DNA of 59,306 nucleotides. Source: Coleofasciculus chthonoplastes F2-STO-03. GTDB lineage: Bacteria > Cyanobacteriota > Cyanobacteriia > Cyanobacteriales > Coleofasciculaceae. Of this stretch, positions 11,105 to 46,283 are shown in pieces. Made by a program: the position numbers and the translations under genes. The notes under the pieces were generated by a model. That model saw nothing but the letters and a program-made list of their open reading frames with translations, was not told the origin of the DNA and did not search any database. Location of the stretch: contig JAVJWO010000173.1 in NCBI GenBank assembly GCA_040222015.1, positions 1-59,306 of the forward strand, in the 5' to 3' direction. How positions within the stretch are numbered: position 1 is the stretch's first letter; each line of letters begins with the position of its first letter.

Positions 11105-11109
11105 GGAGT

Positions 11110-23240: not shown

Positions 23241-23243
23241 CAA

Positions 23244-28897: not shown

Positions 28898-29643
28898 CGG
28901 ACTTTCTAACGTTTAAATTATTCAGTAGCAATGATTAATTGCGCTTTCAAATAAACCATCAAGCGCTTATTGGAACGAGTTTAGGCGGGCAATCAAGGTA
29001 GCACCAATACCATTTCCCAAAAACCAGTCCTTTCCCCATCCACCAAGCGGCTACAATCTCAACTCTAAAATCGGATCAGGATCGGGCGGAATCGGGAGAG
29101 CGATCACCCTTAGAGTTTAACATCTTAACTCAAAGCCATAAATTCAAACTTAAGCTAGGTTCGTAGTCAGCACTTTCGTGTTACCAGCGTTTGTTCTCGA
29201 AGGATAAACCTTAAAATGAATGTCGCTGACTTAAGCTGGGTTCGTAAGTACCTAGACATAAATTCTGTACGAAGACAGCGCTTACTACAAACTCTAAATT
29301 CAGCGACATTCACCTTAAAACCAGTAACATTCGACTTTATTTTGTATGGTGTCGCGTTAGCCTAGTGCAAGAAAGCAGAAATCACTGAACAGCTAACATC
29401 TCCCCCAGCTTCCAGACGTAGCATGCTACGTCTCTACAACCCCTGCTCCCCCTGCTCCTCCACACCTACAAAGCTGCTCCAATATTTCCGCCAAGCTGCA
29501 CTAGCGGGATGTAGTACATTGTCTATACACAAGTTAGCCAGATATGACTGTGATCTTGATCATATTAATTTAAAATTAATATCACATTTCACTTTCAACT
29601 CCCTCACAAATTGACCGTCTGAATATCACCGGAGTCAAGGACA

Positions 29644-29659
29644 AGTAACACAGATTACA
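29644..29659. promoter_or_regulatory. Candidate operator AGTAACACAGATTACA (GTA-N8-TAC, NtcA/CRP-type); identical copy at 37759-37774
   Basis: Exact 16-bp match between two intergenic regions of the CIS locus. Confidence 0.55.
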
Positions 29660-29667
29660 TTGGGATA

Positions 29668-29967
29668 ATGAAGAATAATTTGAATAATCAAAACACATCA
29701 GATATCTCTCATAATCTAAAATCTGATCCACCTGTTTTTATCTACATCTTTGGTCTTGCTATGAACCTTTGGATTATCAGTCTATACGCGCTTGTTTCGT
29801 TTTATTTATTAGTGGCTTGGTTACGCTTTTTCAGACAAGGAAGAGGAATGTCAGATCAGCAAAAAGTTTTATCCTTACTCACTATTGGTATCGCCACAGT
29901 ATTTTGGCCCCTTGTCCTCCCCATTGCTTACGTGAAATTACTAGATGCTACAGCATCGCAATCGTAG
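29668..29967 (+). CDS. Small membrane protein, hypothetical
   Basis: Hydrophobic helices and an IAT.FWPLVLPIAY motif; the true start may be a later ATG (29761). Confidence 0.6.
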   Translation: MKNNLNNQNTSDISHNLKSDPPVFIYIFGLAMNLWIISLYALVSFYLLVAWLRFFRQGRGMSDQQKVLSLLTIGIATVFWPLVLPIAYVKLLDATASQS

Positions 29968-30162
29968 GGATGTTCCAGTGGAACATCTTTACAAGACTTA
30001 AACAAATCACGCATAAGGTTAATTGAACCTTGGAATAAGAGGGGCTTACCTTACAGGTGGGTAAGCCATTTTCTCAACCCTCTGCTAGAGTAGTCAGTAA
30101 GAGTCTTTCGGGAAAACTCAGCTTGACAATCCCCGGAAAAACTGAGTCAGAGATAATCGATC

Positions 30163-30672
30163 ATGTCACAACTTGTTAAAGCTAAACTGATTTCTACAGA
30201 TGGTGGGGGAACCATTGATTTCATGTTCAACCCCAACCAGTTGGCGTTTAGCCAGCAAATTAACTTAACAAAAAGTAGTGGAGCGCGAACGGGTCGAGGA
30301 TTACCCAAGGTTAACTTTGCTTATCCTGAACCCGTTACCCTCTCGATTAACGATGTTATTTTTGATACCTATGAGACAGGTGAGAACGTTCTCCGTTACC
30401 TGAAACCCTTTGAGAAAGCGGTAAATTTTGCCGAGTCGGGGGAAGGAAAGGAAAAACGGCCTCCCACTTATGTGTTTACCTGGGGATCTCAGGAGTATAT
30501 TCGCTGTTTTGTTACAAAAGTTGATTATAACTTGACCATGTTTCTGCCCGATGGGACACCCGTCCGAGTCTCGGTTAACCTGACATTGGAAGAAATTGAT
30601 GAGTCGTTTTCACAACCGGGAATGGGAACACCCCAACCTGGTGATAGCCAGCGTCAGAGTAATGGGCGTTAA
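30163..30672 (+). CDS. CIS tube-initiator/hub protein (Afp7/Cis7-like, no LysM domain visible)
   Basis: F.FNP..L, FDTYE, RPP...F.WG and TMFLPDGTP.R..V.L.L.E motifs; immediately precedes vgrG. Confidence 0.82.
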   Translation: MSQLVKAKLISTDGGGTIDFMFNPNQLAFSQQINLTKSSGARTGRGLPKVNFAYPEPVTLSINDVIFDTYETGENVLRYLKPFEKAVNFAESGEGKEKRPPTYVFTWGSQEYIRCFVTKVDYNLTMFLPDGTPVRVSVNLTLEEIDESFSQPGMGTPQPGDSQRQSNGR

Positions 30673-30711
30673 TATAGCACGGTGGAGAACTCGCTCCTTT
30701 GACAAGCAAGC

Positions 30712-30824
30712 TAAGTAGGGGGGCAATTAAAGTTAACGGCGGAGATCGTCATTCGCTTATGTAAGGGTTTGAGGAACATTCACAGAACTTAACATAGTTC
30801 GGTTTATTTCCACCGACCTACTTA
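30712..30824. mobile_element. MITE-like element with TA-AGTAGG...CCTACT-TA ends, nested in an older copy (30679-30902); other copies at 38015-38155, 43424-~43494 and ~52221-52351
   Basis: Terminal inverted repeats, flanking TA and a shared internal TTATGTAAGGGTTTGAG...ACTTAA.ATAG...GTTTAT core. Confidence 0.75.
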
Positions 30825-31138
30825 CCTCATTCGTTTATGTAAGAGTTTGAGAGCTATTGACAAAACTTAATATAGTTGAGTTTATGTCCACGAATCTACT
30901 TATAATAGTTACTTGTTGAATTTTTACGGATGAATGCTACATTCATCTTAAACAGGTTATTCAGATTAGTTTACAAAACGTAAAACTAAGGCAAGCGAAA
31001 CAAACAGGCAATACAATAAAAAAATCCCCCAAGCCCCTGCTTTCTGCCTAAATTGTCCCCTTCTCACATCAATTCCCCCTGGGTAAATTCCCAGTCAGTG
31101 GCACAACTCAGTGCTAATTCTTCATTCTAGAGGTCGCC

Positions 31139-33085
31139 ATGGCTGTTACTTATGTAGCTGAACCGATTTTAGAAATTGATGGTCAGTTAGCGTCCAAAGC
31201 GTTACTTAACGACATCCTTGAAATCGCTGTGGAAGAAAGCCTCCATCTTCCCGGAATGTTCACCTTAGTGATTAAAAATGATTACTTTCCGGGGCGTACT
31301 GAGGATACAACCTGGCGACATGCAGGCTTATTTGAAATTGGCAAAACGATTAAGATAGGTTTCGGTTCAAGTACCACCCAAGCCCAGGAGTTTGAAGAAG
31401 AAAAGAGAGATTACGTTCTAGAAGGGGAAATCACGGCGATGGAGTGTCACTTTACCCGCGACTCAGAAGCCCCGATGATGATTCGCGGCTATGATATCTC
31501 CCATCGACTGTGGCGGGGGCGGTATAATCGCTCATTTCAGAACATGACCGATACCGATATTGTGAACAAAATTGCTGGGGAAGTCGGGATACCCACAGGT
31601 ACGATTGATGAAACGGGTGGACCTTATGGATATGGGGATATCAATGGGTCAAATGGCTATATTTTTCAAGAAAATCAGACTAACCTAGAATTTTTACGCG
31701 AACGCGCCGCCCGTAACGGGTTTGAATTTTTTGTTCAAGATGGAACATTAAACTTCCGTAAACCCAAAGTAGATGAATCGCTAGAACTTAAATGGCTGAA
31801 AGATGTCCATAGTTTCCAGGTTAGAGTCAGTAGCGCCGAACAGGTGAGTGAAGTTGAGGTACGGGGTTGGGACTACAGTCAAAAACAAGCCATTGTCGAA
31901 ACAGCAAATCGAGGACAAGTCCATACCAAAAATGATTATGGGAACGGCGCTATCACCAGTACCAGCTTTAAAGGGAAGCCACCTACACCCAAAATGGTTT
32001 TAGTGGATCAGCCTGTCTTCAATTCTCCCGAAGCTAGAACCATCGCTCAAGCTATTTGTGATGAATTAGGCGGCGAATTTGTTCATGCGGATGCCAAAGC
32101 AGAAGGAAACCCCAAAATTAGACCGGGACGGGTGATCAAACTCAGCGATTTAGGCAAATACAGTGGAGAGTATTACGTAACTGAAACCCGTCACCTGTTC
32201 GACGAACGTATTTACACTACAGAGTTTACTATCCGAGGATTACGTGGCGATAATCTCCCACCCCTGTTATCCCATGAAGCCCCATTTCAACCCGGACAAA
32301 CACTCCTTGTAGGTATTGTAACTGATAACAATGATCCGAATAGTTGGGGAAGAGTCAGAGTCAAGTTTCCTACCTTAACCGAAGAACACGCCAGTTATTG
32401 GGCGCGAGTTGTCGCCCCAGGTGCGGGTTCCAGTCGCGGCTTAGACTGTTTGCCAGAAATTAATGATGAAGTGTTAGTCGCGTTTGAACATGGGGATATT
32501 CATCATCCTTATGTGATTGGCGGGGTGTGGAATGGTAAAGATAAACCACCAGAACCCGTAACGAATAGTGTCATGGATGGCAAAGTTAGACTCCGGACAT
32601 TGAAAACTCGCACGGGTCATACGTTACAGTTTGTTGAAGAGGATAAAGGAAGCAGCAAAAAAGGCGTTTATCTGGATACAGTGTATGGTCATCATTTATA
32701 TCTGAATGATACGGATAAATTTATCGAAGCGAAAACGAAAAATGGTCATCAAGTACGTCTAGATGATCAGAATAAGAAGATTATCATAAAAACTCAAGGA
32801 GGACATACTTGTGAAATGAAAGATCAGGGAGGGAATATTACGCTGGAATCAACGCGAACAATTAATATAGAAGCTCCCCAGAATATCACCTTAAAAGTAG
32901 GGGGCAGCACGATAGAAATTTCAACAACTAGCATTATCCTCAAGCAAGGTGTTAATAAGATAGAACTAGGTCTATCAGGGATTACTATTGATTCCCAAGC
33001 CATGACTACCCTGAGTGGACTGACCACATCAGTACGGGGCAAGGCAGCGATTACAGTTTCAGCTCCAACTGTTAGCTTAGGCTAA
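31139..33085 (+). CDS. VgrG-related spike (gp27/late control D + gp5 OB-fold + beta-helix), Afp8-like
   Basis: Q.NQTNLEFLRERA.R.G, VRGWD, GIVTDNNDP...GRVRVKFP, WARV, LPEINDEVLVAFEHGD..HPYVIGGVWNG and repeated KT..GH units. Confidence 0.92.
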   Translation: MAVTYVAEPILEIDGQLASKALLNDILEIAVEESLHLPGMFTLVIKNDYFPGRTEDTTWRHAGLFEIGKTIKIGFGSSTTQAQEFEEEKRDYVLEGEITAMECHFTRDSEAPMMIRGYDISHRLWRGRYNRSFQNMTDTDIVNKIAGEVGIPTGTIDETGGPYGYGDINGSNGYIFQENQTNLEFLRERAARNGFEFFVQDGTLNFRKPKVDESLELKWLKDVHSFQVRVSSAEQVSEVEVRGWDYSQKQAIVETANRGQVHTKNDYGNGAITSTSFKGKPPTPKMVLVDQPVFNSPEARTIAQAICDELGGEFVHADAKAEGNPKIRPGRVIKLSDLGKYSGEYYVTETRHLFDERIYTTEFTIRGLRGDNLPPLLSHEAPFQPGQTLLVGIVTDNNDPNSWGRVRVKFPTLTEEHASYWARVVAPGAGSSRGLDCLPEINDEVLVAFEHGDIHHPYVIGGVWNGKDKPPEPVTNSVMDGKVRLRTLKTRTGHTLQFVEEDKGSSKKGVYLDTVYGHHLYLNDTDKFIEAKTKNGHQVRLDDQNKKIIIKTQGGHTCEMKDQGGNITLESTRTINIEAPQNITLKVGGSTIEISTTSIILKQGVNKIELGLSGITIDSQAMTTLSGLTTSVRGKAAITVSAPTVSLG

Positions 33086-33148
33086 TACATCTGAAATCGA
33101 TACCTGATAGATAAAAGAAAGTAAAAAAGTAGTCAAAATAAATAACAA

Positions 33149-33544
33149 ATGCCGTTTCAAACTTGTATGGGAGCAACCCTTCAATGTATTCCGTTTGGTG
33201 TAGCACCCAGTTCGTTAATTGTGATTCCAAAAGGTCCACCTGTATCCGTAAAGGGAATGCTCGCTGCTACAATTATGGACTTTGTGCCAATTACCAATAT
33301 TCCGCCTTTTGGTCTGTGTACATCTATAGCTAATCCAGCCGTAGCCTCAGCCACAGCAGCCGCTTTAGGGGTATTAACTCCGATGCCCTGTCTCCCTGTT
33401 CCCGTCGGACCCTGGAAGCCTGGAGCAATTAAAACAAAGATTAATAAACTTCCGGCACTCCCCGATTTTGCTGTTTGTAACTGCATGTGGGGCGGTGTGA
33501 TCAAGATTATGAATCCGGGACAATTTCAAGTGAGTGTTCTCTAA
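33149..33544 (+). CDS. PAAR-like spike tip protein (DUF4280 type)
   Basis: GATLQC..G, NIPPFGLC, PC.P....PW.PG and C.C.WGG.I.I..PGQ motifs; follows vgrG. Confidence 0.88.
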   Translation: MPFQTCMGATLQCIPFGVAPSSLIVIPKGPPVSVKGMLAATIMDFVPITNIPPFGLCTSIANPAVASATAAALGVLTPMPCLPVPVGPWKPGAIKTKINKLPALPDFAVCNCMWGGVIKIMNPGQFQVSVL

Positions 33545-33549
33545 ATTAA

Positions 33550-34380
33550 TTATTCTTTTAAAGGGATAAATACATTCCGGTTCATCCATTGGGGAGTCTT
33601 GTTAGCACTCATCACCCGCAATTCAACACTCATTCGATCCTGAGTCATGGTTTCAGTAACATAAGTTTTGTGAAGCGTGCCATTCAGAAAAATAAGAACA
33701 TCTCCCAGAGTCATTTCTGGAGACCAAAACTCATCGGGTGCAAAACGTTGTCTGAGTTTCACCTCGTTTAGACAGTCATAATGGAGAAGCTGATCGAGAT
33801 TTCGTCGGATAAACTGAAGCCCCGGTCGATCTCGCCCACAATCCGTGAGCGGTATCCAGCAGGTAATCAGAGGTGTTAACGGCTCAATGGTATAGTAATT
33901 ATTGCTATCTGATAAGGGATTAAACCTAACTCCTAACGCCCCATCTTGGTGCCAGCTATGGGGGGTATGCAAGGGATGATAGTGTGAGAGAGCATACTGT
34001 TTCCTAACCCACGATTGAGAAAGGTTAAACAAAAGGGAGCTATCCATAATCTTGGCTAAAACCTGATAAGCTAAAGAATTAACTACAATAGATAGCATTT
34101 GGTGCGAAATTTTCTCGAAAGCATGGGTGACTTGATCATCATCAAGAGCAAAAAGACTAACGGAGGTGACTCTAATATTAAAAAAATAGTAGAAAGGGAG
34201 ATAATCACTGACCTGTTCGATTCCCTGTTCATGAATAATCTGTTCTATGTAAGAAAAACATTGAGTAGCGGATCGAGTAACAAGGGAAAGTTGAGCAGTA
34301 TCGAGGATTCCTTTGAGCAGAACAACTCCATAATTTTTGAGTAAAACTTCTGCCTCTATGACTGAATTATGAACTTCCAT
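33550..34380 (-). CDS. PhyH-like Fe(II)/2-oxoglutarate dioxygenase
   Basis: WHQD (HxD), TCWIPL.DCG, GDVLIF...TLH.T and R.SVELR motifs; oriented opposite to the CIS genes. Confidence 0.82.
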   Translation of the reverse strand: MEVHNSVIEAEVLLKNYGVVLLKGILDTAQLSLVTRSATQCFSYIEQIIHEQGIEQVSDYLPFYYFFNIRVTSVSLFALDDDQVTHAFEKISHQMLSIVVNSLAYQVLAKIMDSSLLFNLSQSWVRKQYALSHYHPLHTPHSWHQDGALGVRFNPLSDSNNYYTIEPLTPLITCWIPLTDCGRDRPGLQFIRRNLDQLLHYDCLNEVKLRQRFAPDEFWSPEMTLGDVLIFLNGTLHKTYVTETMTQDRMSVELRVMSANKTPQWMNRNVFIPLKE

Positions 34381-34477
34381 ATCTTTAACGAGACTCAGGT
34401 TTTGGCAAATCGGCTAAAATTTTGAGACACGGGTAAGAACGTACTGATTCTAACTCACTAAATTTCTAGAACTAGAA

Positions 34478-34894
34478 ATGGCAGACATTACCAATAATCA
34501 ACCCCGATCTTATTTGGGTAGGGGACTATCTTTTCCATTACGGGGAAACTTACAAGGAAGCCTGCAACTCAGCGCCGACATCCGGAACATCGAAGAATCG
34601 ATCGCACTGATTCTGGGAACTAAGGTAGGTGAACGGGTTTACCGCCAAAATTTTGGGTCACGCCTGTCTGAAATCGCCTTTGCGCCAATGAATACCCAAA
34701 CGCTTTTGCTGATCCGAATATATGTTGAGGAAGCCCTCAAAATGTGGGAACCTCGGATTGTACTGGATGGCGTTTATACAGAACCTGATCCGATTCTCGG
34801 TCGTGTCAATATTATTATTGAATATCATCCGAAAGACTCCCATGATACTCGGAGTCTGGTTTATCCATTCTATCTCCAGCCATCTGGGGAGTAG
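34478..34894 (+). CDS. GPW/gp25 baseplate protein (Afp9-like)
   Basis: LG.G.SFP, IEESI..IL.T..GERV.R..FGS.L, WEPRI and LVYPFYL motifs. Confidence 0.92.
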   Translation: MADITNNQPRSYLGRGLSFPLRGNLQGSLQLSADIRNIEESIALILGTKVGERVYRQNFGSRLSEIAFAPMNTQTLLLIRIYVEEALKMWEPRIVLDGVYTEPDPILGRVNIIIEYHPKDSHDTRSLVYPFYLQPSGE

Positions 34895-34968
34895 TTGGTC
34901 ATTGTTGATGGTTCATGGTTCATGGGGACATAAGACAAATGACGAATGACAAATGACAAATGACAAAT

Positions 34969-37194
34969 ATGGAATTTGATTTTTTACCGAATTTACCAAA
35001 ATCAGATCTAGACGATCGCGCGTTTCAGGATTTGGTGGAAGAGTGTATCCTCCGCATTCCCCGCTACTGTCCAGAATGGACAAATTACAACCCCAGTGAT
35101 CCAGGAATCACGCTGATTGAACTGTTCGCCTGGTTAACTGACCAAATGTTGCTGCGGTTCAATCAAGTCCCCCGGCGTAACTATGTTACCTTTCTGGAAT
35201 TACTGGGGATTCGCCTGCAAGCACCAACGCCGGCGCAAACCCAACAAACGTTTTATCTGAGTTCGTCTCTCCCCGAAGCCTACACAATTCCCACGGGAAC
35301 CGAAGTGGCGACGGTACGCACCCAAGCCGACGATGCGATTATTTTTAGCACCGATCGCTCCCTAGTGATTGCTAAACCCAGCATCCGCCATTTTCTCACA
35401 TCCGACACCGCTGACGACCAACCCCAAGTCCTGCGCGATCGCTTTGTGGGAACTTGGAATCAGCGACCCAGTGGCGAATGGGAGGGCTTGGAATTATCTA
35501 TTTTTAATGAACAACCCCAAACGGGAAATTGCTTTTATCTTGTCTTTGAGGGGGATCAACCCATCGAAGGCAATGTTATCGCCCTCCGGATTAGGGGTGA
35601 AGCCGCTACCTCCACCGGGATTAATCCCGAAGATCCCCCCCGCCTTTGGCAAGCCTGGAATGGTATGTTTTGGCAACCCATCCTGCTCCAAGAAGCAGAT
35701 GATAGTACCAAAGGATTTAGTTTCAGCGAACTGATCCGTCAAGGGGGTGATCCGTTACAAGGGGCGGATGTTGTCCTGCATTTGCCCCTACGTTTACCCG
35801 TTACCCAATTTGTTACCTATCAGGGACGTTGGCTACGCTGTATTTACAGCGAACCCCACTTCAATCAACCCGGTTATATTCGTTCCCCGCGCATCGTTGG
35901 TTTAGATGTCCGGTCGATTGGCGGTACCGTTGAAGTCACCCAATGTACGACGATTCGTAATGAAATTCTCGGCGAAAGTGATGGAAATCCCGGTCAAACC
36001 TTTCAACTCCAAGGACGGGGAATTTTACCGCGCCGGGATGAGGAACATATTCTGGTGATTCCACCTGGAGGTTTACCACAAATTTGGCAAGAAGTCAATG
36101 ACTTTGCCGACTCTGGTCCAGAAGACCTGCATTATACCATTGATGCGATTACTGGCATGATTCAATTTGGTCCCCTATTACGAGAACCCTCTCAACTGCA
36201 AGAACAAACGCGGTGGCGTTCCCGTTCCCAGAGAGTCCCGTCGCAAATGCTCAGTTTAGTCAGTGGTAGAAATAGCGGGGTAGAACGACGGGAGGGCGCG
36301 GCGATGCAGTCGATGGAACGTCAATATGGCGCGGTTCCCCCTAGAGGTGCTGTGATCCAAATGGTTGCCTATCGCATTGGGGGCGGTCAACAGGGTAACG
36401 TGCAACGGGGCGCGATTCAAGTCCTCAAATCCGCCGTTCCTTATGTGGCGAACGTGATTAACTATTCTCCCGCCCGGAATGGCGCTGATGCGGAATCTTT
36501 AGAACAAGCTGTGATCCGAGTACCGCGACTCCTGAGAACCCGCGATCGCGCCGTCACTCGCGAAGATTTTGAATACCTAGCCATGGAAGCCGGAGGCGGT
36601 TCTATTGCTCGCGTGTTATGCTTATCGCCAATTCTCAAAGAAGACGCCGGACGAGTACGTCTGCTGCTTGTACCCAACGCCAATACCGATGGGATTGAGC
36701 GCGGTGAAGGAATTGACCCAGACTTCTTAACCCTGACCCCACAACTCACCGAGCGAGTGTTGAGTTATCTCAATGAACGACGGTTACTCGGTGTGGAAAT
36801 CCTCTGTAGCCAACCCAATTACGTTGGGGTTGCGGTACAAACAGAAGTGGCTCTCGATACAGCTTATAATAATCCCCGTGCCCAACAAGAAATACTATTG
36901 AAACTACAAACCGCACTCTATCGCTTTCTCAATCCCCTGACTGGGGGTTCAGAGGGTAAAGGGTGGTCTTTTGGTCGCCCAGTTTACTCATCTGATATTG
37001 TCACCTTATTGCAAAGCGTTCCTGGGGTACAGTATTTAGGGGCAGTCCAGCTATTTGAATTACGGCGTCAGGGACAAAATTGGATGCGAACCTTGCCGCG
37101 AACCCCTGTTATTGATCCTGGTCCGTTGGGTCTAATTTGTTCCTGGCATAATAATCGATTACGCTCTGGTCATGTGATTAATTTGATTACATAA
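34969..37194 (+). CDS. Baseplate J-like assembly protein (Afp11-like)
   Basis: LDDR.FQDLV.E...RIP.YCPEWT.YNPSDPGITL.ELFAW, G.SDG.PGQ.F, Y..GGG..GNV, RAVT.EDFE.LA and G.GW.FGR motifs. Start is 34969 or 34960 (the latter lies within a heptamer repeat). Confidence 0.92.
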   Translation: MEFDFLPNLPKSDLDDRAFQDLVEECILRIPRYCPEWTNYNPSDPGITLIELFAWLTDQMLLRFNQVPRRNYVTFLELLGIRLQAPTPAQTQQTFYLSSSLPEAYTIPTGTEVATVRTQADDAIIFSTDRSLVIAKPSIRHFLTSDTADDQPQVLRDRFVGTWNQRPSGEWEGLELSIFNEQPQTGNCFYLVFEGDQPIEGNVIALRIRGEAATSTGINPEDPPRLWQAWNGMFWQPILLQEADDSTKGFSFSELIRQGGDPLQGADVVLHLPLRLPVTQFVTYQGRWLRCIYSEPHFNQPGYIRSPRIVGLDVRSIGGTVEVTQCTTIRNEILGESDGNPGQTFQLQGRGILPRRDEEHILVIPPGGLPQIWQEVNDFADSGPEDLHYTIDAITGMIQFGPLLREPSQLQEQTRWRSRSQRVPSQMLSLVSGRNSGVERREGAAMQSMERQYGAVPPRGAVIQMVAYRIGGGQQGNVQRGAIQVLKSAVPYVANVINYSPARNGADAESLEQAVIRVPRLLRTRDRAVTREDFEYLAMEAGGGSIARVLCLSPILKEDAGRVRLLLVPNANTDGIERGEGIDPDFLTLTPQLTERVLSYLNERRLLGVEILCSQPNYVGVAVQTEVALDTAYNNPRAQQEILLKLQTALYRFLNPLTGGSEGKGWSFGRPVYSSDIVTLLQSVPGVQYLGAVQLFELRRQGQNWMRTLPRTPVIDPGPLGLICSWHNNRLRSGHVINLIT

Positions 37195-38450
37195 GTGTGA
37201 ATTGAGAAGGGCGATCGCACTTCATTCTAACCCATACGCGATCGGTTCCGTCTCCTTTCCCTGACGCTGCTCTACCCGACAAATCAGCGCCTGTCGTACC
37301 TGGGCGATCGCACTCATCAGATAACGACGACTATTCACGACATACCACTTTACCCTTTCCGTATCCTTCGCTACTGACATAGTTTTGACTTTCCTTAAGG
37401 TTGTTTCGGCGAAACCTGTCAAGTTCTGATAATTCAAACTATTCTTTCCCAAAAAAAGGTTTGAATATTTAAATCCGTTTGATGTCTTAACAAAACATCA
37501 TAATTTCTCGTTTTTGACGCATTTTCCGGAATAATCTACGAATTCACAGGAAATTCAGCCCTTGTGAGCCGGATGTGCGGTTTTCAGGTATATTATCTAT
37601 GGTGGGTTTTTTGTAGGCAAAAATAATTCTGAGCTAGCTAAACCCCTTGAATATTGGTAAAACAATGTATAATTTCTGGTTTTCCTCTCCCGCCCAATAT
37701 TCCCTTGGACGCATATATTTTGTTCAACTTACGATAAAAATCATTACAAGGTCTTGACAGTAACACAGATTACACAGAAAAGGAAATGGTACAGACATAT
37801 ACTAAATCGTGAGGGACACAGATTCACACAGACAACTCAATCGGACTTGTTGAATCCGTGTTGGAGTGAGCAAAATTGGAGTCGCCCATTCTCCACTTAC
37901 TATCCGCTTGGGTAAAGCTATAGTTAGCGGCGGTCAGGTTTTATCAGCTTTATCCTGATTTTTAATGAAGTTGATCAACAGATTAATACTGGCACTTGCA
38001 AAGGACAGAAATGATAAGTCGGTAGACACAATAAAAGTGAACAGTAGAGGGCGTCATACTTACTTCCTCTGAGGAGCAAGCTACGTCTTATGTAAGGGTT
38101 TGAGAGGTATTTACATAACTTAATAGGGTTGAGTTTATTTCCACTAACCTACTGAGTTGAACCGTCGTTATTCACTGCTATAATCACTCCATGGTTGATG
38201 CAATTAGATACACTGACCGAACCATGTCAAGTGGATCGGATTAAGTAGGGTAGACTACCCAATTTGAATGTGTAGGGGCGGGTTTAGGGAATCCAGTTTC
38301 CCTATTGATGACAACGTTTGTACAAAACCCGCCCTGACCAAATGACAAATGACAAATGACAAATGACAAATGACGAATGACGATCCCCACCGTTAACATT
38401 AAATTTCCCCACCGACTTACAAAAACGGGGGGAGTTAACTTGGATTTAGT

Positions 38451-39488
38451 ATGACACAAGCTCGCGATATATTACCCTTACGTCTACAACTAACCCCCAT
38501 GCAGTTGCCAGAGGTCACCCCTCAGCCGATTGCCGGGTCAAGCGAGTCTGCCGCACCTTTACTCAGCCAAGCCAAACGGGAAACAGAACGTCGCGGGTGC
38601 TACCTTACCCTCTATCCGGGAGAACCGAGTGAACTGCTGCTGGAACTGGAAAACCTCAGCAACCAAACCTTAGACTTAGATATTAATATCCAGGGAGATT
38701 TTCCCTCCCAATGGTATCGTTTGGGTATGGAAGGGCGGGAACTTCTGGCTGGTGGGCGCATGGAAGCGGTGATTCGCTTTTATATGCCAGCCGATTTCTT
38801 TGAGTCTAATCAGGATTGGGACACTAAACCCTCTCACCGCCTCGATTATCGCGGTCAGATTTATGTCTATTCCAGCCAATCGGGAACGGGGAGCAAACAT
38901 ATTGAATCAGCAAGCTTTAATCTCTATGTTCGCCCTCGTAGCTTATATCTAAACTTTGTACCCGAAATTTATCAAGAAGTCGATTTTATCGGTCGCTTTC
39001 TGAAAATTTTCGAGCAAGCCTTTGAACCCACCTTACAATCCCTGGAGGCTTTATGGGCGTATCTCGACCCCTTAATGACACCAGAAACCCTTCTACCCTT
39101 TCTGGCACATTGGGTAGGTTGGCAACTCAACCCCGCCTTAAGCCTACAGCGACAGCGCTATCTGATTCGTCAGGCGATGGAGATTTATCGCTGGCGAGGG
39201 ACGCGCCGGGGATTACGATTTTACCTGCATCTATTTACGGATTTACCCTTGGATGACCATCTTCCCGAACATCAAAAGCATATTTGTATTCAAGAAGTGT
39301 TTGGTCAGGGATTTATGATGGGGAACACCCACCTAAATGAAGACTCCCTGATTGGTGGCGGACAACCGTATCATTTCATTGTCCGACTGCGCCCTGAACC
39401 CCCGACTAAAATTGACGAATTATTAGTGCATCAAATTATTCAACAAGAAAAACCTGCCTTTTGTACTTATGAACTCTATATTGAATGA
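38451..39488 (+). CDS. Phage tail protein (P2 gpI-like baseplate wedge) with N-terminal Ig-like extension
   Basis: YL..VP.IY.E.DF..RFL.IFE, YLDP..TP...LPFLA.WVG, YRWRGTRRGL and I..EKPAF motifs. Confidence 0.87.
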   Translation: MTQARDILPLRLQLTPMQLPEVTPQPIAGSSESAAPLLSQAKRETERRGCYLTLYPGEPSELLLELENLSNQTLDLDINIQGDFPSQWYRLGMEGRELLAGGRMEAVIRFYMPADFFESNQDWDTKPSHRLDYRGQIYVYSSQSGTGSKHIESASFNLYVRPRSLYLNFVPEIYQEVDFIGRFLKIFEQAFEPTLQSLEALWAYLDPLMTPETLLPFLAHWVGWQLNPALSLQRQRYLIRQAMEIYRWRGTRRGLRFYLHLFTDLPLDDHLPEHQKHICIQEVFGQGFMMGNTHLNEDSLIGGGQPYHFIVRLRPEPPTKIDELLVHQIIQQEKPAFCTYELYIE

Positions 39489-39577
39489 CGAATGACGTAG
39501 CCTGCTTCTCAAGGGAAGCGAGTATGACGAATGACGAATAACGAATGACGAATAACGAATGACAAATGACAAATGAC
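39485..39577. repeat. Heptamer STRR arrays (TGAC(G/A)AA); also at ~14903-14950, 24303-24335, 34933-34966, 38335-38382 and 53757-53830
   Basis: Directly visible tandem 7-mers in intergenic gaps. Confidence 0.9.
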
Positions 39578-41051
39578 TAACCACTTCCCTCCCCCATCTC
39601 TCCAACAATTTGAACGTCTTCATGTCACAGACGGCTTACTGATTGATGCCCAACGTTGGCAGTTAGCTCACTACTATCATCGCCAGTATCATAGTACCTT
39701 TTACCAATCTCTACATCAGCCCGGAATTGTCTTCGGGTTGGGGGTACATATCATTCCCGCCCCCGCTGAGGTTGTGGCGAAATACCGAGATGAACGTTGG
39801 GTGGAAATTCAACCGGGACTTGCGATTGATTTATTTGGCAATTTTATCGTAGTGCCAGAACCCATGTCCTATCGGATTTCTTCAGAAGCGACTTCAGGAG
39901 AACCCTTGATAGTGTATTTGGTGGTTAAATTTAGAGATCCCGCAGAATTACGCACCCGTAGAGTTATCGATAGAATCGTCGAAACATTTCGGATTAATGA
40001 AAAGGCAAATCCACCCACGGAGGGGGATGTTGAACTCTGTCGAATTCTTCTGAAAGCAGGACCCGTTAAACTGGAAGCGCCCGTCAATATTTTCTCCCCT
40101 AGCTATAACCAGTTGGACTTGCGCTACCGTCTTCAGCCCCAAGCTCGACCTCTGGCGAGCGTTCACGTTGCCATGTACAAAGGGCTAGCTGTGGATAACT
40201 ATGAACATGAGCGTATTTTATCGAATCTTTCCTATCTTCTACAATCAACCACTGGACTTTACCCTGCTCTCCAGGGGAGGGATGAAATTGGACAATTTAG
40301 TTTACACTCGGCAGAGTTACAAGCTATTTTAGAGTATGATTTATTTTTCATGATCGATCGCCAAGTTCAGGTGTTAGGGGAATCGGAATTTGAGGTGCTG
40401 CGAAAGTATTTAAAGGCAGGAGGTACACTTTTAGTCGAAGCCTCGGCAGGATTAAAGCATTGGATTCAAGGCAATGCGATTAAAGACCTGAGCAACATTT
40501 ACCAAGAACTCGAACAGGCGCTAACCCAAATCGATGATAACCCCAATATTGATACGGATACAAGATTAAAGCAATGCCGACAAGATATTGTTAGTGAACG
40601 AGAGATGATTGCTACAGAGTTAGCCAGACGCAAGAATTCGATCGCGGGTCGATTCCAAGAGTTTGCCCAAAGTATAGGAACCCAGTTAACGCCACTGGAA
40701 AAATTAGACCGTCACGACTTACTGCGGACTAAACCCTTTCTCTTTGCCACGACACCTCGTATCAATAGAAAGCCGATTCAAATTTTAAGGGGTGGCGGAA
40801 TTATTGTCGCGATCGGTAACTTATCGGAGGCTTGGGGAATCAATGAAAAGCAAGTTCTTTCCCGTGAAGCGATCCGTACAGCTCAGGAAATAGGGATTAA
40901 TATTTTGCATTTAGCTTGGCGTCGCCGACAACTAACCCGTGGACAGCAGCCACCACCAACAGTTACGACATCAAGCCCTTCCCACCCTTCCAATCCATCA
41001 CAACCGTCAGATAGATCGCGTCGAGATGAGCTGTTTGATAAGTTAATGTAG
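39573..41051 (+). CDS. CIS-associated protein: N-terminal baseplate-anchor-like domain plus C-terminal DUF4159-like domain
   Basis: RL...DGLLI....W..AH.YHR...Q..HQPGIV.GLGV and PG.AID..G..IVV N-terminus; L..YL..GG.LLVE, PF.F and W.......R..IR...E.GINI C-terminus. Confidence 0.7.
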   Translation: MTNHFPPPSLQQFERLHVTDGLLIDAQRWQLAHYYHRQYHSTFYQSLHQPGIVFGLGVHIIPAPAEVVAKYRDERWVEIQPGLAIDLFGNFIVVPEPMSYRISSEATSGEPLIVYLVVKFRDPAELRTRRVIDRIVETFRINEKANPPTEGDVELCRILLKAGPVKLEAPVNIFSPSYNQLDLRYRLQPQARPLASVHVAMYKGLAVDNYEHERILSNLSYLLQSTTGLYPALQGRDEIGQFSLHSAELQAILEYDLFFMIDRQVQVLGESEFEVLRKYLKAGGTLLVEASAGLKHWIQGNAIKDLSNIYQELEQALTQIDDNPNIDTDTRLKQCRQDIVSEREMIATELARRKNSIAGRFQEFAQSIGTQLTPLEKLDRHDLLRTKPFLFATTPRINRKPIQILRGGGIIVAIGNLSEAWGINEKQVLSREAIRTAQEIGINILHLAWRRRQLTRGQQPPPTVTTSSPSHPSNPSQPSDRSRRDELFDKLM

Positions 41052-41155
41052 GGTGTTGAACAGGGAACACCTCGACTTACCTCGGCTTCGCTCGGTAACA
41101 CGCTCGGTGTGTCACAGGGAAACTGGGGGAGTTTCAGGAGTAAGGAAGGACAATA

Positions 41156-43339
41156 ATGGTAGATAATTTAATTGATACAACGGTTTCCCCAAAACAACTT
41201 CGATTTAAGCCAGGAGGTTTACCTGCTTCATTTGAAGTTAAAGTCGTTAATGATAGCGAGCGCTTTGCCAGTTTTCAGGTGGAAGTAACGGCGGCTGGAG
41301 TTGATGATGATCGGCTTCCGGATTGGTACACGATCTCCCCAGAAGTGGGGACTAAAAAGCCGCCGGGTGATGTCACCCATTTTCAGGTGGCGATTATCGA
41401 TAATCCTGTTCCCGGGTTTGTCGGATTGATGAACCTAACGGTGCGTGTCTTTTCCATGGAACTCCCGGATGAAGACCGAGAAGTATTGCGGTTAATTCTA
41501 GAACAGGGTACGGGTTCAATTCCGTTAAAATTGGATCTGCCAGTACGGGAGTTTCAAGAACGTCCAGCAAGTCAGCAGGAAATTCCGGTACGGGTTTATA
41601 ATCCCAGTCAACTCGAAACCCATGTTACATTAAACTTTTCAGGCATAGATCCAACCTGGATTGTCGATGGAACCGAACGCCAATTATATCTACCTCCAAA
41701 CGGACAAGTCACTGAAACATTTATTTGCCAAATTCCTGACATTTCCCAAGCGCCCAGTCGGATTTATCCCTTTGCGATCGCGGCGACTCATCGCCATGGT
41801 TCTCCCGCCCAAGTGGAAGGTACGCTGGAAGTTTTACCGATGGGATTGGTTGAGTTTAGCGCCACTCCCAAACAACATCAAATTCCCGCCAAACGCCCTT
41901 GGATACCCAACTGGCGTAATTCCCCGGTTCCCTACACCTTGGAATTTGAGAATCATAGCAATCTTCAGCAACAGGTTACTGTTAATATTCAGGGTGAAGA
42001 CCAACAGGAATGTACCTTAGAATTGCCAGATAAACCCGCCGAATTGAATCCGGGTCAAACGGTTCAAGCGCCGCTGAGAGTTCAAGCCAGACGCCATTTA
42101 TGGGGTCGAAAAAAGGAACTTTCTTTAGAAGCATTGGCGACGTTATCGGATCAACGTTTAGGGAATACCAATCCGGCTAGCAAACTGTTACGACTCGATG
42201 TTTATCCGATTATTCCAACTTGGTTACTCCTAGGTGGAGGATTGCTGCTTTTATATTTTATCTGGTGGCTATCTTGGCTCAATCCCGATAATAAGTTTTT
42301 TGGGCATCAAGCGGCGGTGAATTCGGTGCAATTTAATGGCATGAGCCAGAATGTTGTCAGTGGATCTAATGACGAAACTTTAATTAAATGGCGAGTCGAT
42401 GGTTTTTTTAACCCCTTTGCTAATCCAGAAGTGGAGGAGATTGCCGATACAGGTAAAGCTGTGCGGGTTATTCGTTATAAACCAGTCGATAATAACGTGG
42501 TGGCGACAGGGTTAGAAAATGGTGAAATTCAACTGTTGAATTTATTGGCAGAAACTCCAAAATTAATGATGTCTTTTTCCCAGGAAAAAGATGATCGAGT
42601 GTTGGCATTAGAGTTTACAGATGACTCCCGCTACCTGTTTAGTGGTCACGGCAGTGGTTTGGTACTTGGGTGGGACATTCAACAAAATTTAGGCGAAGCC
42701 GATGCGGGAGTGAATGGCAATGTTGAACCCCTACGTAGCGGACGATTCAAATTCGCCATATATGCCTTAAATTTTGTGGGACAAGGTAATCAAAATTTAG
42801 TGGTTGCTGGACGGTTTAACACCTTAGCCATTTGGAATTTACCCAACCCAGATAATGTGGCAATTCCTATACCCTATCGTGAAGGGGGTCAGGATGACTA
42901 TATTTTCAGTATTGATGTTGCTGATATGAAACCTTATCTAATGGCAACGGCTGACAATCAAGGCTATATTACCTTGTGGAATATGGAATCCTGTTTGGTT
43001 GAGGGTCAACCGTCCTGTGAAATTATTGACCAATGGTCGAATGGTCATGACGGTCAAGCGGTACGATCTGTGGCGTTGAGTAATGGGGGTTGTTACTTAG
43101 CTAGTGGCGGCGATGATGGACGAATGATGCTGTGGCCCCTAACCACTCGGGGTAAACGAGCAGAAAATTATGTAAGTGGTATTGAAGTGGGTCGGTCATT
43201 GAGAAACAAAACATTCAATAGTGTGGATATAAATGTTTTGAAGAGAAATATTCTCATCGCTAGTGGTAGTGACGATACCCTGGTGCGGGTGAGACGAGCG
43301 AAACGGCTCAAAGGGTTAGGGTGCGATCGCGATGAGTGA
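41156..43339 (+). CDS. Single-pass membrane protein: ~3 Ig-like beta-sandwich repeats, TM helix, WD40 propeller
   Basis: Repeated V.V.N.S....PG motifs, TM segment IIPTWLLLGGGLLLLYFIWWLSWL, and WD40 repeats (GHQAAVNSV..SGSND, GHDGQAVRSVALS..ASGGDDG). Confidence 0.8.
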   Translation: MVDNLIDTTVSPKQLRFKPGGLPASFEVKVVNDSERFASFQVEVTAAGVDDDRLPDWYTISPEVGTKKPPGDVTHFQVAIIDNPVPGFVGLMNLTVRVFSMELPDEDREVLRLILEQGTGSIPLKLDLPVREFQERPASQQEIPVRVYNPSQLETHVTLNFSGIDPTWIVDGTERQLYLPPNGQVTETFICQIPDISQAPSRIYPFAIAATHRHGSPAQVEGTLEVLPMGLVEFSATPKQHQIPAKRPWIPNWRNSPVPYTLEFENHSNLQQQVTVNIQGEDQQECTLELPDKPAELNPGQTVQAPLRVQARRHLWGRKKELSLEALATLSDQRLGNTNPASKLLRLDVYPIIPTWLLLGGGLLLLYFIWWLSWLNPDNKFFGHQAAVNSVQFNGMSQNVVSGSNDETLIKWRVDGFFNPFANPEVEEIADTGKAVRVIRYKPVDNNVVATGLENGEIQLLNLLAETPKLMMSFSQEKDDRVLALEFTDDSRYLFSGHGSGLVLGWDIQQNLGEADAGVNGNVEPLRSGRFKFAIYALNFVGQGNQNLVVAGRFNTLAIWNLPNPDNVAIPIPYREGGQDDYIFSIDVADMKPYLMATADNQGYITLWNMESCLVEGQPSCEIIDQWSNGHDGQAVRSVALSNGGCYLASGGDDGRMMLWPLTTRGKRAENYVSGIEVGRSLRNKTFNSVDINVLKRNILIASGSDDTLVRVRRAKRLKGLGCDRDE

Positions 43340-43567
43340 GAACGCTTGATGAAGCTCAAACGTCTAATTCTAGCTAGCATCACCACCTTCTTCACCACTT
43401 TACCCAATTTTCCGGTAACAGCATAAGTAGGTGGACACAATTAAAGTGAACGGTGGAGAACTCGCTGCCCGAAAAGAAGCAAGCGACGTCATTCCTCAGG
43501 GAACAGGGAACAGGTAAGGTAGAGTGAGTTAACTTCCCCAGCTTCCCCATCTCCCCCAGCAAAAACT

Positions 43568-44743
43568 ATGACTCGCGTCGTTGGATTAATCAGTGGTACG
43601 TCAGTTGATGGAATTGATGCGGCTTTCGTGGAGATTGCGGGTTCCGAGTCCGATTTAACTGTGGAGTTATTGGCGGGAGAGACTTACCCCTACCCGGAAC
43701 AACTGCGATCGCAAATCCTTAATCTCTGTGCGGGTGGTTCTATATCGATGGCAGAATTCGCTGGATTAGATGATGCGATCGCGCGACAATTTGCTCAAGC
43801 CGCCCAAGCCATCCAAAAACACCACCCACCCGCCGCTACACTGATCGGTTCCCACGGTCAAACCGTTTACCATCGCCCTCCGGCTCCCCAGCTCCCTCAC
43901 CCCTGTGTCCCTCCACCCCCCTACACCCCTTTGGGCTATAGTCTTCAATTAGGACGGGGAGAGGTTATTGCTGACGCCACAGGGATTAAAACGGTTAGTA
44001 ATTTCCGTGTCGCTGATATTGCGGTTGGGGGTCAAGGAGCGCCCTTAGTCTCCAAAATTGATGCTTGTTTGCTCTCCTCCCCGACTCAGCACCGATGTAT
44101 CCAAAATATCGGCGGAATTGGTAATGTTACTTACCTCCCTCCCTGTCAAGGAAATTGGTTAGAGTTGGTCAGTGGTTGGGATACAGGACCAGGAAATACG
44201 CTGTTGGATTTAGCCGTGCAGCATTTTACCCAGGGACGTCAATCTTATGACCAAGACGGGAACTGGGCGCGACAAGGTACAGTTTGTCAAGCCTTGCTTA
44301 ACAAATGGTTAACCCATGACTTTTTCCAGCAACCCCCGCCTAAATCCACAGGGCGAGAATTATTCGGCTGGGATTATCTACACCAAAGTATTGCCGAGAG
44401 TCAAGCCTATTCTCTGAGTCCGGCTGATCTATTGGCAACCCTGACAGAACTCACCGTCGCGTCTATAGAGGACAGCTATCGTCGCTTTTTACCGAAGATG
44501 CCTGATCAGATATTCGTATGTGGTGGGGGTAGCCGCAATCTTTATCTCAAACAGCGCATGCATTCCCGGTTACAATCCGTACAGATACAAACAACGGATG
44601 AGGCTGGGGTGAGCGGAGATTTCAAAGAAGCGATCGCCTTTGCCGTTTTAGCCTATTGGCGAGACTTGGGCATTTGCGGGAATCTCCCACCAGTTACGGG
44701 CGCGAAGCAGGCGGTACCTTTGGGTAATATCGCGTCATCTTAA
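43568..44743 (+). CDS. anmK: Anhydro-N-acetylmuramic acid kinase
   Basis: GL.SGTS.DG.D, GSHGQT..H.P, GGQGAPL, NIGGI.N, DTGPGN, PKSTGRE.F, CGGG and EA.AFA motifs. Confidence 0.96.
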
Positions 44744-45091: not shown

Positions 45092-46283
45092 ATGTTACGA
45101 GTACCCGTTCTATCAAAATCAGGCAAGCCGTTAATGCCTACAAAACCTAGCCGCGCTAGACGTTGGCTAAAAAACGGTAAAGCCAAAATTGTACACAACG
45201 ACTTAGAATACTTTGCCATTCAGTTGACCTTTAAGACAGGAGAAAGTACCCAACCTATAGCTTTAGGCATAGATCCCGGAAAATGTTATTCAGGGATTGG
45301 GGTTCAATCGAGCCTTGCTACTCTCTGGATGGCTCATTTAGTCCTACCGTTTAAGACAGTTAAGGAACGGATGGAATTACGGCAAATCATGCGTCGAGCC
45401 AGACGGGGAAGACGGATTAACCGGAAGCTGTCTTACTCTGAACGCTGCCATCGTCAAAAAAGGTTTAATAACCGCAGACAAGGACCCATTACCTCCCTCA
45501 ATTCGAGCCAACAAACAGCTAGAGTTACGGGTAGTTAAAGAGTTGTTTAAGCTGTTCCCTGTTAGTGCTATTCACTATGAGCTAGTCATGGCTGATGTTG
45601 ATAAAACCAGTGGACGTAGCTCGGCTCGTAGGAGCGTTGGCTTTTCTCCAGTTATGGTGGGACAACGACAGATGCTTAACTGGTTGTCTAAGTTAGCTCC
45701 TGTTGTTACCCACAAAGGATGGCAACGGGATGGTAATGGAACCAGTCAACTTAGACAATGGTTAGGGTTAGCCAAAGACAAGAAAAACAAATCGAACCAA
45801 ACACCTGCAACTCATGCTGTTGATGGTGTGACCTTAGCCGCGTCTGAGTTCATCCAATGGCGAGAACGACACTCCAGTAATGCTAAGCATGGCAACTGGG
45901 AAGGTGGTGTTCAGATTACACAAGCACCGTTTGCAGTAATTCGTAGACCGCCCGTTAGCCGCAGACAATTACACCTTTGTGTTCCGACTAAAGGAGGTAA
46001 GCGGCGCAAATATGGTGGCACAGTTACCCGTCATGGGTTCAGAAAAGGTGATAAGGTTTTAGCCGAAAAAGCTGGAAAGGCTTACATCGGCTGGTGTTCT
46101 GGAGACACTGAGAAGCAGGTTTCAGTTAGCGATGCTAGCTGGAAAAGACTTGGGCAGTTTACTGCCAAGAAAGTCCGGTTGTTGCAGCGAAGCACGGGGT
46201 TAATCGTTCGCATTGAGCGAAGTCGAAATGTCGTGCCTTCAACTGGATTGTCAAACCTTGCCACGTTGAGTGGCAAGGTTTGA
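45092..46283 (+). pseudogene. isrB: IsrB (HNH-less IscB family RNA-guided nickase), frameshifted
   Basis: PLMP motif, RuvC-I GIDPG, Arg-rich bridge helix, RuvC-II YE, RuvC-III HAVD and no HNH/CxxC. A +1 frameshift at ~45485-45488 is bridged by [20 protein letters not shown] in the second frame. Confidence 0.85.

Follow-up and report, generated by a model that had tools for sequence, protein, structure and literature searches.

The baseplate and spike module of Coleofasciculus chthonoplastes F2-STO-03 as a probable part of a split contractile injection system of subtype IId

A 59,306-nucleotide stretch of the cyanobacterium Coleofasciculus chthonoplastes F2-STO-03, called the window here, encodes the spike and baseplate of a contractile injection system (CIS) with no sheath gene beside them, which raises the question of the machine to which these parts belong. 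The eight CIS-related genes at 30163-43339 are intact and all lie on the plus strand, flanked by a signalling cluster (21440-28897, minus strand) and anmK (43568-44743). The preliminary description of a co-oriented module holds for these eight genes but not for a PhyH-like gene that lies among them on the minus strand. The features of the module are as follows.

30163..30672, plus strand: tube initiator/spike hub (Cis7/Afp7-like, PF19266 CIS_tube), 169 aa; Pfam 5e-20
31139..33085, plus strand: VgrG spike (Cis8/Afp8), 648 aa; NF033848 VgrG_rel 351 bits, cut-off 275
33149..33544, plus strand: DUF4280 PAAR-like tip protein (Cis10), 131 aa; PF14107 2e-30
33550..34380, minus strand: PhyH-like dioxygenase gene; PF05721 8e-4, under the cut-off
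34478..34894, plus strand: gp25-like sheath initiator (Cis9), 138 aa; PF04965 1e-16
34960..37194, plus strand: baseplate J wedge protein (Cis11) of the subtype IId type, 744 aa; TIGR02243 664 bits, over the cut-off
37222..37452, minus strand: 5' stub of an Afp15-type AAA ATPase gene; similarity to the intact ATPase of genome G015
38451..39488, plus strand: Tail_P2_I wedge protein (Cis12-like), 345 aa; TIGR02242 122 bits at residues 168-292, over the cut-off
39573..41051, plus strand: DUF4159 protein, putative tail-fibre-like baseplate appendage; sub-cut-off CIS13_fam match and predicted structure
41156..43339, plus strand: TM-WD40 bitopic protein; AF2 model, hhalign and family survey

No sheath or tube gene is present within 16-30 kb on either side of the module. 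A tblastn search of the window used 11 proteins of the same genome as queries (sheath, tube, cap, tape-measure, chaperone and ATPase) and gave a sole match, the AAA domain of the gene at 57364-59004. This gene lies far beyond the module and was rejected as Afp15, with 28% over the AAA domain only and no match to the WHD. The earlier statement that sheath, tube, cap, tape-measure and Afp15 genes are lacking in the 59 kb was confirmed for the window, apart from the ATPase stub. The stub shows 76% identity over 70 residues to the N terminus of a 727-aa ATPase that is encoded intact at this site in G015, and window positions 37247-38292 are 86% identical to the start and upstream DNA of that ATPase gene. 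In G021, the same site contains ATPase and DUF4157-like genes. The stub would be the remnant left by the deletion of a cassette of ATPase plus cargo. A promoter and terminator scan of positions 29500-44000 was uninformative (20 and 11 sites, compared to 24.4 and 14.7 expected).

The description as sheathless applies to the window only, as the genome encodes 2 sheaths, 6 gp19 tubes, 2 Pvc16 caps and 4 WHD-AAA ATPases. The parts considered here are distributed over the following contigs.

C173 (the window contig): tube initiator, VgrG, PAAR-like tip, gp25, two wedges, fibre-like appendage and membrane protein
C85: sheath, three tubes, two chaperone-like genes and Pvc16 cap
C22: fourth tube and a 324-aa gene
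C216 (with paralogous cassettes): ATPase and DUF4157 cargo
C181: second Ig-TM protein

The eCIS core set Afp1/5, 2/3/4, 7, 8, 9, 11, 15 and 16 is completely encoded in the genome, with tubes from C85 and C22, sheath and cap from C85, the ATPase from C216 and the initiator, VgrG, gp25 and baseplate J from the window. The 324-aa gene of C22, considered as a candidate tape-measure-like cargo, gave no family match, and passages of PMC13277306 did not decide the assignment. The absence of a tape-measure gene is usual in lineage II. A further contig, C23, contains a separate, complete subtype-Ib-like CIS with its own VgrG, gp25 and tip, a long baseplate, a lineage I sheath and a CIS_TMP tape measure. 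Hcp (PF05638) and IcmF_C/TssM (PF06744) gave 0 matches in this 99.99% complete genome with profiles that both match the E. coli control; the Hcp tube and TssM membrane complex that define T6SS subtypes i-iii are lacking here.

The module and the C85 sheath locus are at least 41 kb apart. The assembly consists of 219 contigs, so that distances between loci are minimum values. In dbeCIS, neighboring core genes of a contiguous locus are separated by <30 kb, and other arrangements count as split loci; the parts described here, being non-contiguous, fit the split-locus class of Chen et al. 2019. An assembly artefact was rejected because the module and the sheath locus are embedded among housekeeping genes, 16-45 kb in from the ends of their contigs.

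The lineage of the parts was assigned by best-match tests. Baseplate J shows its best PDB match with 9GTP, the Streptomyces CIS (E 6e-117), followed by 7AEB (6e-7, over 220 residues). The C85 sheath likewise matches the Streptomyces CIS structures 8BKY and 9GTP best (E 1e-106), and the best matches of the C23 sheath are 7ADZ and 7B5H. Judged by these best matches, not by a tree, Afp11 and the sheath appear to group with the Streptomyces CIS, apart from lineage I. The module shows the IId traits of one baseplate J and a one-piece VgrG of 648 aa, and the CIS_TMP gene encountered is part of the separate C23 system. The module and the C85 sheath very probably form a split system of dbeCIS subtype IId (Streptomyces/Roseiflexus-type), in which, as far as the genes tell, every IId part is present, intact, under purifying selection and of one lineage. 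The proposal of a split CIS that shares a sheath encoded elsewhere is borne out by the C85 sheath of this lineage. The Anabaena thylakoid-anchored tCIS and AlgoCIS (7B5H, 7ADZ; PMC8894136) match the C23 cluster instead (sheath E 5e-136 and 1e-141). The lineage of the Anabaena tCIS differs from that of the module, and its fibre Cis13 itself bears a TM segment, in contrast to the TM-less fibre-like protein of the module, which does not appear to be a thylakoid-anchored tCIS or of subtype Ib.

The distribution of the genes among relatives links the baseplate to the sheath. In the family sample, the baseplate and sheath orthologs each occur in 28 of 48 genomes and together in 27, of which 6 carry both on one contig, 4.6-11.2 kb apart. 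G022 (1440 contigs) shows the baseplate without a sheath ortholog and G004 (1050 contigs) the reverse. The phylum sample contains the baseplate in 14 of 161 genomes, all 14 with a sheath and one (G084) with two of each; G115 has a sheath and no baseplate match at E 1e-120. Across 24 relatives, baseplate and sheath are correlated in their identity to the source genome (Spearman 0.82), a value given little weight because the relatives are kin and not independent. A C22-type tube lies upstream of the initiator in six loci (L042-L044, L048, L050, L052).

The preliminary description had named relatives with the same genes contiguous with sheath and tube genes, in an already described lineage, as a finding that would refute it in favor of a simple rearrangement. 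Such relatives were found: sheath and tubes adjoin the baseplate genes in L038, L049 and L051, and split loci of dbeCIS subtype IId are tabulated by Chen et al. 2019 (PMC6899500). Table S2 of that study lists 13 split loci, 8 of them cyanobacterial IId (Acaryochloris, Anabaenopsis, Gloeomargarita, four Arthrospira and Nostoc PCC 7107). By the published table, not by sequence, these show the same separation of baseplate and tube genes, a single Afp11, a one-piece VgrG and no tape measure. They occupy two locations, compared to at least five in the source genome, which contains a contiguous Ib-like CIS in addition; the split-locus search omitted genomes with a contiguous locus. The split architecture is already known for subtype IId, and the source genome adds a further case. 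The baseplate without a sheath changes little in itself, because it is an effect of the window on this known architecture. In the literature searched, no experimental work on IId systems from cyanobacteria was found, and a search for the genus name with 'contractile injection' gave no paper.

The nearest solved sheath and baseplate are those of the cytoplasmic CIS of Streptomyces coelicolor (8BKY, 9GTP; PMC10066040, PMC10020575, PMC12237407). The two systems share Cis11, a Tail_P2_I-type Cis12 wedge and the lack of Afp14, and the bitopic Ig-TM proteins of the source genome seem to resemble Sco4256-4258. The source genome differs in its split genes, four tube genes, fibre-like Cis13-type gene and swappable PAAR tips, in a WD40 domain after the TM helix where Streptomyces has a ricin-type lectin, in the lack of a CisA-like match in one comparison and in a two-membrane host with thylakoids. 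The Roseiflexus CIS (PMC12998442) is also of subtype IId and comes from a mat-dwelling filamentous phototroph in which close CisA homologues are missing. It belongs to the Chloroflexota, its cluster is reported as syntenic with that of Streptomyces and its particles were seen by cryo-ET.

TM-WD40 contains three Ig-like β-sandwiches (1-349), a TM helix (352-372) and a seven-blade WD40 propeller (388-716) in an AF2 model with a pLDDT of 91.6. Foldseek with the whole model returned WD40 propellers only, which leaves the Ig part without a structural match from that run. A TM-like segment is present in 90 of 92 homologs, and a profile search with the N-terminal part gathers 1604 proteins at E 0.001. 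The gene occurs in 29 of 48 family genomes, comprising all 29 with a IId system and none of the 19 without, and its product appears to be a dedicated partner of that system. In hhalign, a RICIN-domain protein of a Streptomyces plasmid served as a stand-in for Sco4256, chosen by position, TM helix and annotation. The C181 profile matches it with 96.7% (E 4e-10); TM-WD40 gives 46% (E 2e-4) directly and 97.4% against the C181 profile. Against the zinc-ribbon TM protein that takes the place of CisA in one plasmid-borne Streptomyces cluster, the N-terminal profile of TM-WD40 reaches a probability of 0.2, and no CisA-like protein was detected in this single comparison. Through the stand-in, TM-WD40 seems to resemble the Sco4256 effector family and not CisA, and it is probably a distant member of that family.

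An ancestral IId cluster would have come apart, its genes now lying at five or more loci (C173, C85, C22, C216 and C181), the products of which would assemble in trans as in 9GTP. By analogy with that structure, the initiator ring would cap the VgrG-PAAR spike, gp25 and the wedges would be the base on which tube and sheath grow, the cap would close the far end and sheath contraction would drive the spike. Once the IId identity is granted, it is about an even call, by analogy to the studied systems, that the particle is cytoplasmic and, in a stressed cell, fires at one of the membranes of that cell; the Sco4256-like bitopic proteins would then act either as a partner on the membrane side or as cargo. 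The Streptomyces mode of action may not carry over because of the lack of a CisA-like match and the extra fibre-like gene. Eight metatranscriptome runs contain 13-14% of sampled words of 34478-43339, which are word matches without read placement and no evidence of expression.

The same split IId particle could alternatively be a true extracellular CIS released by lysis, the DUF4159 fibre binding other cells and DUF4157 cargo and PAAR toxins being delivered. The DUF4159 protein is modeled (pLDDT 87.7) with a phage-RBP shoulder domain (10-192) and a class I GATase-like DUF4159 domain with a helical hairpin (195-454). Its N terminus matches NF053767 CIS13_fam below the cut-off (E 2.5e-8), and VIA-align pairs the model with the 9h5b tail fibre (Z 8.4, rmsd 3.4, 126 aligned) and with 4i66 (Z 15.4, rmsd 3.0, 182 aligned). 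No TM segment was found in the protein, and DUF4159 was not mentioned among the literature matches listed. The model points to a tail-fibre-type anchor domain, encoded directly after the Tail_P2_I gene as for the eBAP3 fibres in PMC12923769. In subtype IId, the Afp13 fibre is missing in most, not all, loci, and a fibre-like gene is present here. The tip also varies, as the preliminary description had suggested: residues 561-640 of VgrG show 76-86% identity in 2 close relatives, whereas 6 further ones reach 20-23%, so that the last ∼90 aa form part of an exchangeable tip allele. At the tip position, a PAAR-motif gene replaces the DUF4280 gene in other close relatives (allele survey), and the PAAR extension of the L034 allele, with a neighboring gene, weakly matches a XopG-type family. 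The VgrG-tip/PAAR cassette is swapped among close relatives, and the PhyH-like gene, present in L030 and L033 and missing from the remaining close loci, would be a passenger of the tip allele of the module. Five DUF4157 genes in the genome also favor extracellular delivery. However, the distal DUF4159 domain has a GATase-like fold and no recognized adhesin fold, the studied IId systems of Streptomyces and Roseiflexus are cytoplasmic and the two bitopic proteins closely track the system. Release by lysis is overall rather doubtful, and slightly less so given the IId identity.

Less probable is a particle docked baseplate-first on a membrane via the bitopic Ig proteins, from which a living cell would fire outward or into the thylakoid lumen. 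TM-WD40 occupies the Streptomyces CisA position downstream of the wedge genes, its occurrence follows the system without exception and a T6SS is lacking. Against docking, the extra N-terminal domain of the Tail_P2_I protein is weakly like the Ig domains of the membrane proteins (blastp E 0.004-0.06 to the C181 protein and TM-WD40), and by homology TM-WD40 would belong with the Sco4256 family, whose members were described as toxic proteins associated with cargo and not as anchors. Docking is judged unlikely, barely less so if subtype IId is taken as given. It is similarly unlikely that cyanobacterial IId systems would be a distinct membrane-docked class, in which a GATase-head fibre and an Ig-extended Cis12 dock on two bitopic Ig proteins with WD40/Ig heads sensing the periplasm or thylakoid lumen, and a living cell fires swappable tips with PAAR toxins.

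A small chance is left for a silent relic that was scattered recently and is being lost. The ATPase stub would agree with this, as would additional breaks that follow baseplate J in L028, L029 and L034, and the local ATPase cassette has decayed. The structural reading frames are nevertheless all intact, and in each of the 8 other genomes from this genus the baseplate J and TM-WD40 matches contain no internal stop. Module genes show dN/dS values of 0.04-0.24 in four sets of relatives (tube initiator, 0.07-0.10), at or below the housekeeping level (anmK, 0.19-0.21), as pairwise ratios that are blind to very recent relaxation. Even less credible is an alternative baseplate using the sheath and tubes of C23: both systems occur within one genome, but C23 has its own complete set of parts, its baseplate is 27% identical to that of the module over 191 residues only and in 7 of the 8 other genus genomes the sole sheath match at E 1e-30 is of the C85 type. 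The stand-alone, non-contractile spike-baseplate device of the preliminary description, which would suit the sheath-free flanks and a 42-kb Oscillatoria plasmid with a baseplate block and no annotated sheath, can be dismissed almost entirely because the baseplate type co-occurs with the sheath type (in the source genome, and in 27 of 28 family and 14 of 14 phylum-sample baseplate genomes), and the sheath initiator gp25 is kept with a dN/dS of 0.04-0.07.

With the split IId system, a full IId parts list is now given for a mat-forming genus, including three conserved accessory proteins that differ from those of Streptomyces. Screens based on gene clusters will overlook or misassign such split systems. 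Should the two bitopic proteins turn out to anchor the particle, they would add a further mode of CIS membrane attachment, and the membrane-docked reading, if true, would provide cyanobacteria without a T6SS with a T6SS-like weapon, built in trans from at least five loci beside a tCIS-like machine.

The module at 30163-43339 of the window is a genuine, intact baseplate module of an already known split CIS. Split loci were defined by Chen et al. 2019, who, in the accessible part of that paper, tabulate 13 of them (Table S2), 8 being cyanobacterial IId, the dbeCIS subtype of the Streptomyces and Roseiflexus systems; the same part gives Afp14 as generally absent from lineage II. The eight genes named in the preliminary description (tube initiator, VgrG, DUF4280 PAAR-like, gp25, baseplate J, Tail_P2_I, DUF4159, and TM-WD40) all lie in this interval on the plus strand with intact ORFs, and the reported absence of sheath, tube, cap, and tape-measure genes holds for the 59-kb window. 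That inventory overlooked a PhyH-like gene and an ATPase relic:

33550-34380, minus strand, PhyH-like gene within the module
37222-37452, minus strand, 5' end (~70 codons) of an Afp15-type ATPase gene, in the 1.26-kb gap 3' of the baseplate J gene

The relative G015 has an intact ATPase of 727 aa at the corresponding position; the stub shares 76% identity with it, and window positions 37247-38292 show 86% identity to the start of that gene and its upstream DNA. In a second relative, G021, ATPase and DUF4157-like genes sit between the same two baseplate genes as the stub. The stretch between these two baseplate genes is therefore a slot for ATPase plus cargo, lost by deletion here. Short tandem heptamer and dispersed repeats lie between module genes (34895-34959, 38050-38400, and 39489-39572); those at 38050-38400, with up to 118 blastn matches elsewhere in the genome, could promote rearrangement. 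Elsewhere in the window, an OLD-family TOPRIM/AAA gene and then a UvrD helicase gene (9245-12540, minus strand) form what we take to resemble a Gabija-type defence pair, and a 148-aa RRXRR-domain ORF and the 246-aa ORF close behind it, which matches no Pfam family (45092-46283, plus strand), are possibly one broken mobile gene.

The source genome, G000 (assembly 99.99% complete), contains family matches for 2 sheath, 6 gp19 tube, 2 Pvc16 cap, 4 WHD-AAA, and 5 DUF4157 proteins, which fall into two systems; neither Hcp nor IcmF_C was found in it. Further parts lie on four other contigs:

C85:25423-31883, sheath, three tubes, two short chaperone-like genes (so labeled by position, with no Pfam match), and cap
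C22, fourth tube and a 324-aa neighbor gene
C216, ATPase with DUF4157 cargo
C181, 952-aa bitopic protein

The best match of the C85 sheath is Streptomyces 8BKY/9GTP (E 1e-106), and that of the window baseplate is 9GTP as well (E 6e-117). No baseplate gene was found among the ORFs listed for C85:25423-31883, and the module lies at least 41 kb from this sheath locus. A contiguous cluster at C23:5951-23074 (L015 and L016) has its own tape measure, long baseplate, spike tip, gp25, VgrG, initiator, tubes, sheath, and cap, together with a peptidase S74 gene. The best hits of the C23 sheath are AlgoCIS 7ADZ and Anabaena 7B5H. This cluster is of the AlgoCIS/tCIS (Ib) type, so G000 has two CIS lineages. 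The Ib-type thylakoid-anchored system characterized, in the text available, by Weiss et al. 2022 has its counterpart in G000 in the C23 cluster and not in the window module. No experimental work on cyanobacterial IId systems and no paper on CIS in Coleofasciculus was found in literature with thin coverage of subscription journals. Four Afp15-type ATPases occur in G000, each near a DUF4157 gene, besides one lone DUF4157 gene; these scattered loci are cargo cassettes that may belong to either CIS:

C216:50326-55135, cargo-cassette locus
C94:3637-7634, cargo-cassette locus
C214:499-5272, cargo-cassette locus
C23:27657-33000, cargo-cassette locus
C158:3933-8243, cargo-cassette locus

In a family sample of 48 genomes, including G000 and the unpublished genome G005, which by itself carries none of the conclusions, the baseplate ortholog (at least 56% identity, leaving out 8 genomes with 37-40% partial matches to longer baseplates) and the sheath ortholog (at least 64% identity, leaving out 14 genomes with partial matches of at most 55%) each occur in 28 genomes and jointly in 27; the two genomes that break this pairing come as 1440 and 1050 contigs. 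Both genes share a contig, 4.6-11.2 kb apart, in 6 of the 27; the window's genus contributes 8 genomes with both genes, and none of these is among the six. Across an even phylum sample of 161 genomes, the baseplate is present in 14, all with a sheath, and the sheath in 15; two pairs lie on a single contig, at spacings of 11 kb and, within a 6.1-Mb contig, 51 kb, and the members of the other 12 are on separate contigs, where contig breaks may play a part.

Forty loci were surveyed from the genome collection; they overlap with the genome handles and are not independent counts. Sheath and tubes adjoin baseplate genes in L038 (Coleofasciculus sp. LEGE 07092), L049, and L051, and a C22-type tube lies upstream of the initiator in six loci. 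The closest named relatives are Coleofasciculus sp., with baseplate identities of 93-95%. G015 carries a second initiator copy (L074:15757-16314), 81% identical and oriented divergently to the sheath gene, at the position that the start of the baseplate operon occupies in L070; this copy is the trace of an old junction or break point. A further break directly follows the baseplate J gene in L028, L029, and L034. Plasmid-borne IId baseplate blocks adjoin a nif cluster in Pseudanabaena ABRG5-3 (L090) and lie among ATPase and DUF4157 genes on Oscillatoria pOSC7112.04 (L093), where no annotated sheath was found within 42 kb. A CHASE2 gene adjoins the C22 tube, and the IId clusters of two relatives contain homologs of it. 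The interval from the DUF4159 gene to the TM-WD40 gene is often occupied by sensor-like genes, one of them annotated as cache domain; signaling genes may travel with the IId system:

G000:C22:58766-60562, CHASE2 gene
L069:29-889, CHASE2/sensor-like gene
L096:13740-15593, CHASE2/sensor-like gene
L090:18612-19988, CHASE2/sensor-like gene
L071:5276-6340, CHASE2/sensor-like gene

A single particle assembled in trans from five loci is most likely; together, the loci would build it on the plan of 9GTP, the Streptomyces CIS particle described in the accessible part of Casu et al. 2025. There is roughly an even chance that this particle is cytoplasmic and, under stress, fires at the membrane of the cell that made it, a mode that the available texts report for Streptomyces and propose for Roseiflexus.

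The DUF4159 protein (predicted model, pLDDT 87.7) has an N-terminal domain resembling phage receptor-binding shoulders, with middling scores (9h5b, Z 8.4; 4l92, Z 8.2), and a GATase-like second domain (4i66, Z 15.4); residues 10-122 match CIS13_fam below the cut-off. Its gene directly follows the Tail_P2_I gene, as eBAP3 fibers do in the accessible text of PMC12923769, and the protein would be a short fiber-like appendage. That a fiber-bearing particle is released as an extracellular weapon is considered less likely than the cytoplasmic mode.

The predicted model of TM-WD40 (pLDDT 91.6) comprises three beta-sandwiches, a TM helix, and a 7-blade propeller, and its hydrophobic segment is kept in 90 of 92 homologs. 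An N-in, C-out topology is likely because TM-WD40 has no N-terminal hydrophobic segment and its propeller contains conserved cysteines. The N-terminal part occurs in 29 of the 48 family genomes, exactly those with a IId baseplate or sheath. Of these 29 genomes, 28 also encode the C181 protein, which is absent from all 19 others. The two proteins are paralogous (profile-match probability 97.4%). A RICIN-domain TM protein, encoded between ATPase and sheath on a Streptomyces plasmid, is also matched by the C181 profile (probability 96.7%) and weakly by TM-WD40 (46%); no match was obtained between TM-WD40 and the protein that occupies the CisA position in the Streptomyces plasmid cluster (0.2%). 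Sco4256 homologues are placed in cyanobacterial IId regions, including that of Microcoleus PCC 7113, in the available part of Vladimirov et al., and Sco4256-4258 are, in that of Casu et al. 2023, toxic in E. coli and required for filled tubes and stress-induced death. A membrane-docked machine is improbable.

Pairwise dN/dS values of the module and C85 genes are 0.04 to 0.24 across four sets of relatives, compared to 0.19 to 0.21 for anmK, and dS against G015 is raised in VgrG alone (1.1 versus 0.12 to 0.42). Among the window and 8 close loci, a 648- to 658-aa VgrG accompanies DUF4280 in 3 of 9, a 619- to 624-aa VgrG accompanies a 218- to 220-aa PAAR protein in 5, and a 375-aa PAAR protein with an extension is found in L034. 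Beyond residue 560, VgrG is only 20 to 23% identical to other alleles. The VgrG C-terminal and PAAR alleles thus differ among close loci, and the suggestion of an exchangeable tip is borne out for the spike end. Swapping of the spike tip is common in T6SS. The C-terminal extension of the 375-aa PAAR protein (L034:2388-4182) bears a weak resemblance to the XopG family (E 1e-17, below the cut-off), and the PAAR gene is followed by a 243-aa gene; the two may form a toxin and immunity pair. The remaining value of the module lies in its conserved set of accessory proteins and its swappable tip.
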